The notes under the pieces are model-generated. The model was not told the DNA's origin. It searched no databases and saw only the letters and a program-made list of their open reading frames with translations. A DNA stretch of 63,706 nucleotides from Girardia tigrina (lineage: Eukaryota), in contig MQRK01233049.1 in NCBI GenBank assembly GCA_001938485.1, positions 6,200 through 69,905 of the forward strand, in the 5' to 3' direction. The position numbers and the translations under genes are program-made. Shown here piece by piece: positions 45,721 to 62,992 of the stretch. Every line of letters starts with the position of its first letter. Within the stretch, counting starts at the first letter, position 1.

Positions 45721-47177
45721 ATGAATGACCAAATGAAAGATTCAACTCAATCGAATATTCCAATTACATCAAATGCAATATCAGAAACTAGACTGGCTGA
45801 GGCTCGGAGGCGATATCGCAACTTCCGCTTCTCGATCCCGATAACAGATTTCGAGAATCGGCGCGAGGCATTGTTAAAAACCTGGGAAAAGAACACGGTT
45901 TTCATTATGGGCCAAGAAGAGGTCTCACATAATGGACATCGTCACTTGGAGCTCTTTGCGACAATGACGAATAGTAAATATTTTATTCGTTGATAACAAA
46001 GATATCACCGGGTGATTTATTTTCAGGTATGACCTACGGAAGCGCAAGGCGGCAGTTAGATGTCCCGTTTGTTTCCGGGGTACTCGACACCGATGTGCAG
46101 AGCGCAATGGATTATTGCGCAAAAGAAGATACCGCCGTGGAAAACGGGGTCAAAATTTACATGGGCAACAAACGAAGTGTTTTATTTGAAAGTCTCTGGC
46201 CGAATGTGATCAAGTGTGAATCGGCTCGAGACGCTATGAATGTAATCAAAGAAAACAAACCAGAGTTATATTTTCTTAAACGTAAGGCCCTAAGCGAATC
46301 TTTTGATGCCGAGTTTGGCAAATCGACTAAAGCAAATTATAAGAATTTTAATATTCCCCATGAGGATGTGTGGGATAACCTCACACACGTGTTTATAGGC
46401 CCTACTGGAATAGGGAAAAGCAATTTTGCTTTATCCCATTTCAGCAAACCTGTGCACGTGACAAACTTTCAAAATTTCTCCCGGATTTCCGATAACCCGG
46501 AAATTACAGACGGGATAGTAATCGATGATGTCGAACTTGCAAAACTGTCTGCCCATAAGTTATTGCAACTTGTAGACAAACAGTTTGAGCATGGTGTCGA
46601 CGTCAAGTATGGGTATGGATACATACCCGCTAACTTACCTCGAATTGTAGTTTTAAATTCACTTGAATATTTCTGGCCACCCATTATATCATCAACTTTG
46701 AGATCTGCCATTAATAGGCGTATAAAGGTGCATTATTATAATGCACGTTTATATGATATTAACAACGACGTAAATAATGAAACTCCTAATAATTGTATAT
46801 ATAAACCAAGTGCTGAAATCAAATTAGCGCCTAAAAAAACTAGTCCATTACCTAATAAAGCGACAGTTAGTAATAACGAAAGTAATGATAAGGCATTGTG
46901 GATGTCGAAAAAACGACTGAAGCATGTTGAGTTAAATAATGAAAACAATAGTAATAAAGAAATTGATGTCCCTAAAACTTGTCGCAATCTAGGGATGAAA
47001 AACCCTCTACCTGAACAGTATGAGGGTTTTTTGAAATGGATCGAACGAAAAAAAAATAAAGAGTTGATTGAGTGGATAAATTGTTTAAAACAGACTGTGA
47101 TGATACCGACTACGAAGATTTCTAATGTTTTTATTTGTTTTTTTTTGATATTTGTTAATTTTTATAGAGTTCAATAA
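45721..47177 (+). CDS. CRESS-type Rep copy R1 (HUH endonuclease + SF3 helicase), join(45721..45973,46027..47177), ~467 aa; only the last ~20 ancestral residues are frameshifted
   Basis: Motif I RNFRFS, motif II GQEE..NGHRHLE, motif III DYCAKED, Walker A GPTGIGKS, Walker B IVIDD, B' VDVKYG, motif C VVLN, Arg finger AINRRI; 53-nt phase-1 GT-AG intron. Confidence 0.88.
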
Positions 47178-47239
47178 AGTTTTGTTCTTGTTAAATGTCT
47201 TTTTCATTAAATAATAGAAAATAACATAAACTAAAATAT

Positions 47240-47540
47240 TTATTTAAATACACGTCTAAGTAAATTCATTTTAACTTTATAAAATAAATGACTATAATCA
47301 TATATATTAACCCCTACATTAATAACTATAGATTTTACACAATGAATATAAACAGAACGATTTAATAGAGGTTGTTTAATTTCGGAAGTATATTTCCAAA
47401 TAGGTTGATTATTGGTTAAAAAAATAGGCATTCTATCCATTTTAACTTTCTGTTTATGTTTTTGACTAATTTTTACACATGGGGACGATTCACAAATCAA
47501 TTTCATATAATCAGCATTACGAACATCTTAAATTATCTCT
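47240..47540 (-). pseudogene. NS1/E1-like SF3 helicase copy H1, 3' part only, convergent with R1
   Basis: MKLICESSPCVKISQKHKQKVKMDRMPIFLTNNQPIW...LLRRVFK*, nearly identical to H2 and H3. Confidence 0.8.
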
Positions 47541-48220
47541 TATGATGCAAAACGACTATATGAAAGTCGTCGAAGGTTTCGAAATTTTAGATTTTTGATT
47601 CCATTATCAGACTTCCAATCCCGCAAAGATGCTTTAATGAGTGCTTGGGAAAAGCACACGTTGTTTATGATAGGGCAACAGGAATAGGAATTGTCCCACA
47701 ATGGTTACGCCCACATAGAATTATTCGCAACAATGAATAATTGTAAGATTATTCCTGTAAAAATGATTTTTTTAACCGGGATAATCTTTCAGCAATGACA
47801 CCCTTTGTTACCGGGGTACCCGAAGACGAAATCCAAGCGGCAATTGCATATTGTAGTAAGGAAGATACGAGAGTTGAAGGGGGGTTAAAATATATTTGGG
47901 TCACCGCCGTTTCGTAACATTTGAAAGCATCTGGCCGTCTGTGTGAAACGCAGATACGGCGAAAGAAGCTATGAATATAGTAAAAAGCTCTAAGCCAGAA
48001 ATTTTCTTTTTAAAACGAAAACAACTGGCAGAGTCATTTGAATGTGAGTTCGGTCACAAAACCGAACCCGTTCATAAAAAATTTAACGTTGGAGCAATAA
48101 ATGTGTTGGATGATAAAACCCACATTTTTATTGGTCCAACCGGTGTCGGTAAGACAAACTTCGCCTTGTCTCACTTCAAGAAGGCCGTGCATGTCACAAA
48201 CATGCAAAACTTCGGCCGTA
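47540..48220 (+). pseudogene. Rep copy R2 (clade B), truncated at both ends; intron 47743-47792
   Basis: YDAKRLYESRRRFRNFRF, AYCSKEDT, GPTGVGKT; stops and deletions. Confidence 0.8.
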
Positions 48221-49094
48221 TTGAATTATTGATATATATAAACAACCGATCATTAATTATTTATTTATTAATTATGACTGAATTTAATGAAAATGAACCG
48301 ACCACAGTTAATGCAACGCAAACAATATCGTCTAATATGCCTACGACTACGAATTATATTGCGGAAACACGGTTGTACGAGGCGCGCCGCCGTTATAGGA
48401 ACTTCAGATTTAGTATTCCTATTACTGATTTTTCAGCAAGAAGAGAAACGTTAATGAAACAATGGGGAAAAAACACCCTATTTATAATGGGACAAGAGGA
48501 ATGGTCCGCAAACGGACATCGACATCTAGAGATGTTCGCGACAATGAATAACTGTAAATATTCTGTATTTATGCAAATTAATCACCGGGAATTATACTTT
48601 TAGCAATGACTTACGGCAGTGCGCGTCGCCAATTAGACGTGCCATTTGTAACTGGCATTTAGGATACCGAGATCCAGGCTGCGATGGATTATTGCAGCAA
48701 AGACGACACTAGAGTGGAAAATGGTGTCCGAATCTACATGGGAAACCGACGTTCGGTGACTTATGAATCTATCTGGCCAAATGTTTTTAAGGCGGAATCC
48801 GCCAAAGATGCTTTAAATATTGTCAGAACCTGAGCTTTATTTTTTAAAGCGCAAAGCGCTAGCTAAATCATTTGATAGTGAATTTGGAAGTAAAACAAAT
48901 TCGCTCTATAAAAAATTTATTGTTAAACATGAAAATGTGTGGGATAATTTAACCCACATTTTCATTGGGCCTACAGGAATAGGAAAGTCCAATTTTGCGC
49001 TTTCCCATTTTCAACTGGCCGTACATATAACGAATTCTAAAAACTTTGCTCGTATATCAGACAATGTCGCAATTAATGACGGCATTGTTATTGA

Positions 49095-61440: not shown

Positions 61441-61564
61441 TGGGGAGTTGGGGAGTTTATATATTATCATAATATATTACTATTAATAATAATAATATTA
61501 TCCCCTTTTCCTTTTATATATAGTAAGTAGTAAAAGTACAACTCCCCAACTCCCCAACTCCCCA
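61441..61564. promoter_or_regulatory. G-rich inverted repeat upstream of H3
   Basis: TGGGGAGTTGGGGAGTT ... AACTCCCCAACTCCCCA(ACTCCCCA). Confidence 0.7.
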
Positions 61565-61615
61565 CTTACAAATTTGCCAATCGATAATGTACTATTAAAA
61601 CATTATATTATTAAA

Positions 61616-61667
61616 ACGAGCCTTGGCTCGTCTCTAGGGCGCCATGGCGCCCAGGCGAAAAAACTCC
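61616..61667. other. Second, partial copy of the Y/T hairpin, fused to R10
   Basis: ACGAGCCTTGGCTCGT-CTCTA-GGGCGCCATGGCGCCC-AG-GCGAAAAAACTCC. Confidence 0.75.
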
Positions 61668-61669
61668 CC

Positions 61670-62992
61670 TGGGAAAAGGCGATATTATTCATGATCGGCC
61701 AAGAAGAAATGTCTCCAAGTGGACATCGGCACGTGGAGATATTTTGCACCATGAACATTGTAAGGCGTTACGCTGCCCAATTTTTTTTTGTTAATTTTTT
61801 TTTAGCTATGACCTATGGATCGGCGCGGCGACAGCTGGATGTCCCGTATGTATCCGGCGTTACCGAAGAAGAAATCGATCAAGCCATCCGTTACGTGAGT
61901 AAGGAAGATACTAGGGTCGAGGGTGGGGTGCGGATATATTTAGAGCAACGTAAATACGTTACCCTCGAGAGTGTCTGGGCCAGTGTACTGCGGTCAGACA
62001 CCGCTAAAGAGGCCATGAGCCTAATAAAATCATTAAAACCGGAGTTGTTTTTCCTGAAAAGGAAGCAACTTGCCGAGAGTTTTGAATGTGAATTCGGTCA
62101 CAAGACCGAATCCATATACAAAACTTTTGTTCATGAGCCAATAAATGTATGGGATGATTTTACCCATATATTTATTGGCCCAACTGGTATTGGCAAGACG
62201 AATTTCGCCTTGCATCACTTCCAAAAGGCAGTGCATATTACGAATATGCAAAATTTTGGAAGAGTTAGTGATGATCCTTCCATAACTGTTGGCATCGTTA
62301 TCGATGACATTGAGTTATCGAAGTTATCACCACACAAATTACTCCAGCTCGTCGATAAAGAGTACGAGCATGGAGTAGACGTAAAATACGGGTATGGTTA
62401 CATAGCCGCCATGCTGCCTCGCATTATATGCTTGAACAGCATGGAATATTTTTGGCCGAAAGAATGTCCGCAATTAAAGCGCCAGGCCATAATGAGGCGC
62501 ATCAAAATACATTATTTCACAGCTAAATTATTTAGCGTGGATAATGAAAGTCAATCTGCTAAATTATTAGATTTAAAATCAAAATATCATCCGCACCCCG
62601 ACCTTAAAATATCATATGTAGCGGAGAATAAAATAAACTCGAGCCAAACTATACCACGTAAACGGAAACAAGACCTATCCGGCGGTAACTGGATATCGAA
62701 GAAGCTGATGACAGAAAAGAAAGCAATGGATCCACCATTTCTGGAAACACCTCAAATTCCAGCACCTATCGTGGACCTTGAGGCCTTAAATAATACACAA
62801 ATCGATGTGTATTATGAGGCGGCCAAAATGGGCATGAAGGAACCACTTCCCAAGGAATTTGAGCCGTTCATTCGGTGGCTCGAAATGAAGAAAAAAAGAG
62901 AAATTGCCCAATATATCGATTTAACAAAATTCGATGATTCCGCAAAAGAAAAGGTCGTTGTCGACCTCGATGAATCTGACAATGAATTATGA
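61670..62992 (+). pseudogene. Rep copy R10 (clade B) lacking motif I; intron remnant 61760-61805 reads through in frame
   Basis: GHRHVE, YVSKEDT, GPTGIGKT, IVIDD, AIMRRI; followed by a convergent helicase 3' stub (LNRVFK*, ~63127-63147). Confidence 0.85.

Follow-up and report, generated by a model that had tools for sequence, protein, structure and literature searches.

A Rep-gene hairpin intron in virus-derived elements of a planarian genome is a likely mirtron, with a miR-36-type seed in one subclade

PEVE (planarian extrachromosomal virus-like element) and PIVE of Schmidtea are described in PMC3198968, the accessible text of which assigns a parvovirus-like second helicase to the small segment of PEVE. 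Mirtrons, in the accounts available in part, are introns that serve as Dicer substrates once spliced and debranched, and viral mimics of host microRNA (miRNA) seeds are known, in the excerpts available, from herpesviruses and retroviruses; viral miRNAs in general are known mostly from these two groups. Mirtrons bypass Drosha, and their reads, of about 22 nt, have ends at the splice sites and are often uridylated. The available portion of a 2015 review assigned the cellular noncanonical routes, mirtrons included, to no viral miRNA, and literature searches that included the names of single-stranded DNA (ssDNA) viruses and PEVE turned up no report of a viral mirtron, with the subscription literature mostly out of reach. 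We analyzed a 63,706-nt stretch of the AT-rich 1.43-Gb genome of the planarian Girardia tigrina (assembly GCA_001938485.1, contig MQRK01233049.1, positions 6,200 to 69,905 of the forward strand), referred to here as the window. It contains broken viral units whose replication gene (Rep) belongs to a PEVE-related lineage and is interrupted, between HUH motifs II and III, by a GT-AG intron. This 50- to 56-nt intron is predicted to fold into an end-to-end hairpin and is likely a mirtron; in one subclade, its product would be a 22-nt RNA carrying the host miR-36 seed.

The window Rep resembles PEVE Rep (AAK53631.1/NP_476526.1) in being a homologous Rep of CRESS type (circular Rep-encoding ssDNA) in a planarian host. 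Exon 2 of the first window copy was 34% identical to PEVE Rep (E 1e-44), which was among the best matches of the Rep profile search; the profile also matched the Rep of porcine circovirus 2 (PCV2; E 6e-5). Both CRESS domains, the HUH nuclease and the superfamily 3 (SF3) helicase, were present with their motifs, and a predicted model of an intronless sister (L041, not a window copy) resembled redondovirus, circovirus, and nanovirus Reps. The occurrence of a CRESS Rep together with a second E1/NS1-like helicase in a planarian makes the system PEVE-like in the broad sense. However, PEVE Rep falls in a separate clade that excludes the window Rep. The Rep exons of the first window copy had no Pfam match, and viral contigs held no close relative of this Rep, with one weak metagenome match. 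The exons of the first copy and the introns of the window are as follows.

45721..45973, plus strand: Rep exon 1 of the first copy, with motifs I and II
45974..46026, plus strand: phase-1 GT-AG intron, predicted end-to-end hairpin (z -2.99); splicing keeps the frame
46005..46026, plus strand: predicted 3p small RNA with the 5' end UCACCGGGU, as in host miR-36
46027..47177, plus strand: Rep exon 2, with motif III, SF3 helicase, and C-terminal tail (34% to PEVE Rep)
47743..47792, plus strand: hairpin intron, ACCGG at -18 (UUUAACCGG type; z -4.67)
48554..48603, plus strand: intron with the UCACCGG arm intact and the full hairpin absent, the 5' arm being shortened (alignment gap; z +0.53)
49310..49363, plus strand: hairpin intron whose last 22 nt begin UCACCGGU (z -5.97)
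53888..53930, plus strand: 43-nt intron without hairpin and without ACCGG
54222..54241, plus strand: 3' remnant of an intron, ACCGG at -20, ahead of an exon-2 stub
54785..54836, plus strand: hairpin intron, ACCGG at -18, out-of-frame junction (z -3.11)
59508..59560, plus strand: hairpin intron whose last 22 nt (59539-59560) equal host miR-36 over the first 10 nt (z -3.61)
61760..61805, plus strand: intron of the clade without hairpin and ACCGG; open if retained, out of frame if spliced

A previous sequence-only reading of the window had proposed a host-sized spliceosomal intron at eight of these positions, and all eight were bounded by GT and AG at 43 to 54 nt; host intron candidates were mostly 42 to 55 nt, the same size as the Rep intron. 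Our survey set comprised the window and 90 fetched loci (30 automatic and 60 chosen), a subset of at least 152 exon-2 and at least 106 exon-1 matches genome-wide, and gave 72 motif-II-to-exon-2 junctions; for four window copies the intron ends were set from the coordinates of the previous reading. GT was found at 70 junctions, AG at 69, and both at 67; of the five exceptions, one copy was rearranged, another had a run of N, and in three a splice end was altered or lost. The 67 two-ended junctions corresponded to 62 distinct introns, of 43 to 56 nt plus one of 69 nt. Intron lengths were spread over all three frames (31, 16, and 15 introns), indicating that the stretch is not coding. Half of the 62, in copies that are related, were divisible by three, mostly with 51 and 54 nt. 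Splicing at the assigned GT leaves exon 2 out of frame at 54785 and 61760, where the copies are broken. On these sequence features, the stretch is almost certainly a spliced, U2-type spliceosomal intron. None of the 72 junctions was intron free, which fits integration at the DNA level, as had been proposed. An origin by retrocopying was rejected on the same count and because L037 lacks one clade intron but keeps another.

Most of the introns were predicted to fold over their full length, such that the first G is paired to the base preceding the final AG. The 62 introns were split into 45 of hairpin type and 17 others. In 37 of the 45, folding gave the whole-intron geometry of a mirtron, a single hairpin of at least 14 bp with a 2-nt 3' overhang (mean z -2.87), compared to 10.4 of 45 expected from shuffles with the splice ends fixed and the inside shuffled and to 1 of 50 host intron candidates; ungrouped, all 62 introns had a mean z of -2.55. 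In a clade of 17 copies, 7 of the 13 consensus pairs had changed on both sides, with a covariation score of 0.43, whereas shuffled controls gave 0.22 (0 of 500 reached the observed score) and slid controls no more than 0.15. The sense strand was stabler than the antisense strand in 43 of 45 hairpins with RNA energies and in 24 of 45 with DNA energies, and the hairpins contained 93 G-U pairs versus 15 A-C mismatches. The compensatory changes and the RNA-strand bias support the predicted hairpin, and selection on it as RNA is very probable. A role as an ssDNA hairpin was ruled out by the absence of strand bias with DNA energies and by the many G-U pairs. Of the 17 non-hairpin copies, 16 form one clade (support, 99) nested within hairpin copies, indicating that the hairpin and ACCGG were lost together.

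The ACCGG element that had been noticed in the window was indeed present in six of the eight introns (45974, 47743, 48554, 49310, 54785, and 59508) and in the 54222 stub, its A lying 20 or 18 nt from the end of the intron. Across the survey it occurred in 36 of 62 distinct introns (shuffle mean, 0.11; maximum, 2 in 2,000 shuffles), with its A at -20 in 20 copies and at -18 in 10, and was located in the 3' arm of the hairpin. Neither this hairpin nor the following seed match was part of the sequence-only reading. The last 22 nt begin with UCACCGG in 15 of the 45 hairpin copies and with UCACCGGG in 10, and the 5' end of flatworm miR-36 is UCACCGGGUA. The first 7 to 10 nt were identical to host miR-36 in 15 of 45 introns, all ten bases being shared in six copies; shuffles placed CACCGG at that position 8 times in 900,000. 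Defining a host seed as nt 2 to 7 or 2 to 8 in the predicted register, we found miR-36 in these 15 of 45 and miR-277 in PEVE and three genomic copies. The host encodes both families: exact planarian miR-36a, miR-36c, and miR-277d are present in hairpins of this genome. The miR-36a and miR-36c 22-mers were identified by their fold and their identity to published planarian sequences, the miR-36 loci being uncalled by Rfam at its gathering score. An Rfam mir-7940 match spanning the 59508 intron exactly (E 0.74) was sub-threshold, like all Rfam hits, and was treated as chance.

The seed was also conserved unevenly with respect to its surroundings. In the 17-copy clade, each base from -22 to -16 was kept in 16 or 17 of the 17 copies, and the remaining arm was 62% alike; four-fold sites in exon 2 were saturated in the same comparison (major base, 0.40). 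The bases pairing with the seed varied freely via G-U, on the 5' side only. Such free variation of the pairing arm is the behavior of a microRNA passenger arm.

The intron had been considered ancestral to the Rep family, which the relatives contradict. Its site was continuous in all 22 relatives that cover it, including sister lineages of the same genome and PEVE Rep, for which the DNA (L122) is likewise continuous. A stop-free 51-nt copy, when read through, aligned as a 17-residue insertion relative to all 22. In a 67-row tree (quick search, midpoint root), the 11 rows of the intron clade (10 intron-bearing copies and P0001, which is known without its DNA) grouped on a single branch (SH-aLRT, 95) that lies within intronless relatives (94 and 95). 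Because the relatives are continuous at the site and the intron clade is nested among them, the intron is, on alignment and tree, a single gain within this lineage by exact insertion. Gemini-type Rep introns are located after the nuclease domain, and the nested gain among intronless relatives indicates that the insertion site is not shared by descent with the gemini/genomovirus Rep intron. Other Rep branches carry short introns ahead of motif I, between motifs I and II (PEVE), in mid-Rep, and in the helicase; the family acquired short introns, several of them palindromic, at no fewer than five sites. The available text of a preprint derives gemini/genomovirus Rep introns from one origin and those of circoviruses from a second, and the PEVE-related Rep family adds several independent gains to these two origins. 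The intron before motif I is unstructured and is present in L032-L036, L040, and L047 and precisely absent, at a CAG/GT site, in L037 and L044. P0006 and P0009 have an in-frame 17-residue insert just ahead of motif II, probably a retained 51-nt intron at a further site.

PEVE itself appears to carry an independent hairpin intron. Annotated PEVE Rep lacks motif I, which lies upstream in a different frame, and on the large segment an unannotated 56-nt GT-AG hairpin intron is predicted between motifs I and II (L122:4028-4083; z -3.5). Removal of this stretch restores a motif I-II spacing of 42 codons, as in four relatives; the public record of PEVE Rep would accordingly need an unannotated first exon and an intron. 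The last 22 nt of this intron begin with UAAAUGCA, the 5' end of miR-277, and the miR-277d encoded by the host genome is exact. Three genomic PEVE-like copies have a hairpin intron of 52 to 54 nt in mid-Rep, where PEVE is continuous (L033:954-1005, L036:732-784, and L031, minus strand from 3004), and by alignment they do not have the PEVE-type break between motifs I and II. Their introns have folding energies of -17 to -20 kcal/mol (z about -6), compared to -0.7 to -3.5 kcal/mol for the antisense strand, with UAAAUGCA at -21. Elsewhere at the mid-Rep site, the motif was kept in one degraded copy and changed in one, and other sublineages have shorter introns without it. Both miR-277-type cases were found by frame and fold rather than by seed search, and shuffles gave this placement 21 times in 250,000, in a set that includes one wrongly bounded string. 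With about 50 host seed families and about ten intron types allowed, chance seed matches are roughly estimated at a few per hundred trials at most for each case, so two host matches are unlikely. These related lineages appear to have done likewise with other introns and the miR-277 seed.

Three further observations concern PEVE and PEVE-like Reps. L122:3542-3589 is a 48-nt GT-AG stretch forming an end-to-end hairpin (z -3.35) in an open reading frame (ORF) upstream of PEVE Rep, with an unrecognized seed. A third hairpin intron lies in the helicase of PEVE-like Reps (L033:1352-1404; also L034, L071, and L043), with a 2-nt overhang in 4 of 6 and no recognized host seed. The near-PEVE copy L129 ends before the PEVE intron site.

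In the mechanism that we propose, the host spliceosome would excise the intron, the excised lariat would be debranched, and Dicer would cut 22 nt from the intron 3' end. The resulting RNA would repress miR-36 targets in the infected cell, and every Rep transcript would yield Rep as well as a host-type miRNA. Dicing of the intron as a mirtron is quite probable, and the released RNA more likely than not works as a host-seed mimic. The wider proposition, that small planarian DNA viruses repeatedly made Rep introns into mirtrons copying the miR-36 and miR-277 seeds, as the first virus-encoded mirtrons, with at least two origins and with an effect on the state of the infected cell, is finely balanced. 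The available parts of published data report miR-36b as enriched in planarian neoblasts and miR-36a/c as ranking highest in abundance among the miRNAs of one planarian data set. A DNA virus that depends on Rep would plausibly require stem cells, where miR-36b is enriched, and the mimic might hold the infected cell in, or push it toward, a state that supports DNA replication.

Several observations weigh against a mirtron with a host seed. The other 30 of the 45 hairpin copies have different 5' ends (UAACCGG, UUUAACC, and UUAUCAGG), which match none of the 32 planarian miRNA rows in the accessible part of the published table, and the miR-277 match starts at -22 in PEVE but at -21 in the genomic copies, a one-base shift in register. 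No RNA data set was listed for the first copy, and three small runs guessed to be RNA yielded parts of exon 2 from related copies and no junction-bridging reads. In one run guessed to be RNA, a contig matched L101 at 99% and began to align at the first exon-2 base; the three letters left over are too few for bridging, and the L101 copy has the intron type without a hairpin. The planarian small-RNA lists covered, which are miRNA lists of other species and do not constitute a test, showed no viral-type reads. The 16-copy clade lost both the hairpin and ACCGG and kept GT-AG. RNAalifold over 43 copies, with misaligned 3' ends, gave no common structure, and over the 9-copy -18 group it gave -1.73 kcal/mol with one compensated pair. 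The split into hairpin-type introns and others was made after the folds had been inspected; it agrees with the tree for 16 of the 17 non-hairpin copies. Because of the relatedness of the copies, the shuffle figures cannot be read as probabilities. The host control, with an overhang hairpin in 1 of 50 candidate introns, a mean z of -0.2, and ACCGG in 0 of 50, covers dynein genes only and includes some false introns. A length of 50 to 56 nt lies toward the lower end of the size range of Dicer substrates. Finally, the invariant U and A of the motif, at branch-point distance, fit the metazoan branch-point consensus yUnAy.

This last point leads to the main rival explanation, in which the hairpin tunes splicing by hiding the splice sites and branch point and thereby sets the ratio of full Rep to short product, with ACCGG as branch point plus GC clamp and the seeds arising by chance. 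We consider this possible but rather doubtful. A hairpin that spans both splice sites and favors the RNA strand would suit it, and the 2-nt register follows in part from splice-site complementarity (the 10.4 of 45 expected). However, neither a fixed 3' arm opposite a free 5' arm nor the occurrence of two host seeds at three intron sites follows from it, the 7-mer of the miR-277 type departs from yUnAy, and the retention product is not conserved, 9 of 62 introns (61760 included) keeping an open frame when retained. The motif's U and A probably act as a branch point as well, and this fit may be the route by which the seed arose, with CCGG left unexplained. On the distribution among copies, ACCGG is more than a branch point, because the 16-copy clade lost it with the hairpin yet kept GT-AG and because the 50 host introns lack it. 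The sequence-only reading had connected the short product with a possible replication switch, in which a family-wide ancestral intron, when retained, would lead to a short Rep without nuclease activity. The stop on retention was borne out for 52 of 62 introns, and mastreviruses make spliced and unspliced Rep forms; but stops are expected in AT-rich introns, they are not at a fixed place, and an intron that is missing from PEVE Rep and 21 other relatives is a nested gain. The retention switch is a weak proposal, and this reading as a whole is hardly credible.

True mirtrons might instead have mainly viral or lineage-specific targets, the host-seed identity being incidental or relevant in some lineages only. 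Two thirds of the hairpin copies, whose seeds lack a seen host match, and the helicase hairpin intron of PEVE-like Reps, which has no recognized seed, would be explained in this way. However, no conserved seed-complementary site stood out in the window, and two separate exact matches to the host would be an improbable coincidence; we regard this explanation as unlikely. One intron arm resembles the second helicase gene over 17 nt, but this stretch was dismissed as a target, since codon use there indicates an overlapping reading frame. It is very improbable that the hairpin is a now functionless relic of the intron's origin, whether by fold-back insertion in replication or from an introner-like element. 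The repeated gain of short introns in the Rep family, several of them palindromic, and the loss of structure in one clade are in line with such a relic, but a neutral palindrome would decay while four-fold sites saturate, and compensatory changes were found. A relic possibly explains the origin of the hairpin but not its upkeep. We favor an intron specific to this lineage that has likely turned into a mirtron; mimicry of host seeds likely evolved at least two times in the virus family.

The broken viral units form a cluster at 45 to 63 kb of the window, and host potassium-channel exons lie at 33 to 42 kb (33430-34422 and 41096-41671, minus strand; voltage-gated, with Ion_trans and BTB_2), adjoining the cluster. 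The features of the cluster other than those given above are as follows.

45184..45543, minus strand: remnant of a parvovirus-VP1-like ORF with a phospholipase-A2-like domain, oriented divergently to Rep (52% to the L101 ORF by tblastn, E 2e-30)
47243..47539, minus strand: 3' remnant of a second E1/NS1-like SF3 helicase
50070..51350, plus strand: Mutator-like element (MULE) transposase between two parts of one Rep exon 2 (PF10551, E 1e-14)
55976..56722, minus strand: E1/NS1-like SF3 helicase ORF, convergent with Rep (Parvo_NS1, E 2e-5; PPV_E1_C, E 7e-4)
56663..56820, no strand assigned: G-rich/C-rich inverted repeat upstream of the helicase; also at 52402-52520 and 61432-61573
60732..61447, minus strand: second near-complete E1/NS1-like helicase, frameshifted

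Across loci, the unit order was a parvovirus-VP1-like ORF (minus strand), Rep (plus strand), and a second E1/NS1-like SF3 helicase (minus strand). The VP1-like ORF of L101 was above the PF08398 cut-off, and no close relative of the second helicase was found in viral contigs. Gene order is variable in the Rep family: in the intronless lineages L049 and L041, the second helicase is on the Rep strand, and L049 also has a VP1-like ORF. The window Rep copies shared 60 to 93% protein identity across the first 42 codons of exon 2 with four-fold sites near random, which suggests that they diverged under selection as replicating elements and were integrated later. Diverged copies are clustered in the window (45000-63100, all in one orientation) and in contigs C242413, C243127, C181455, and C198715; an integration hot spot or a piRNA-cluster-like locus could be suggested. 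The three inverted repeats and short GC palindromes at 52270-52305 and 61620-61655 are possible origins or ends. A hydrophobic 64-aa ORF (56419-56613 and 61168-61365, minus strand) overlaps the second helicase, with third codon positions frozen in 14 copies. A piece of a more distant Rep lineage lies at 57796-58120, with a possible unstructured 48-nt intron at 58030-58077.

If the mirtron reading is true, a small virus would gain a host-type regulator without coding cost and coupled to Rep expression, a new means by which viruses could steer the cells of their hosts. The dozens of diverged copies document intron gain, seed change, and loss and thus provide a natural series on the origins of introns and miRNA seeds.

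The units differ from their closest described relative in organization. Here, within a single unit, Rep is flanked by the VP1-like ORF on one side and by the second helicase on the other, whereas the 5,699-nt PEVE segment matched neither; PEVE, an extrachromosomal element, has terminal inverted repeats of 243 nt, and the copies here are integrated fragments. PEVE Rep, continuous at the present intron site, has its own predicted intron. The Rep introns of mastre-, becurto-, capula-, and grabloviruses, genomoviruses, and circoviruses are likewise spliceosomal introns in a CRESS Rep, but they belong to other lineages and positions, and the text examined gives no hairpin role. In the accessible account of ebv-sisRNA-1 of Epstein-Barr virus (EBV), a short viral intron with a conserved hairpin also persists after splicing; in contrast, it is a stable whole intron of 81 nt with a local 23-nt hairpin and no Dicer-type duplex. 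Drosophila mirtrons of the miR-1003 type, as described in the text available, share with the Rep intron short length, a hairpin with a 2-nt 3' overhang defined by the splice sites, and an AG end. In contrast to these animal mirtrons, most of which are short-lived in their hosts according to the same partial sources, the putative mirtron here lies in a viral replication gene and is kept across saturated synonymous divergence. The viral miR-155 homologues of KSHV (Kaposi's sarcoma-associated herpesvirus), Marek's disease virus 1 (MDV-1 miR-M4), and simian foamy virus (SFV) are, in the excerpts available, small RNAs with a host seed, as the Rep product would be, and would similarly use a host target set. 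However, those mimics arise by Drosha, Pol III, RNase Z, or Integrator routes, whereas the planarian elements would combine an intron-derived route with an invertebrate host and the seeds of miR-36 and miR-277.

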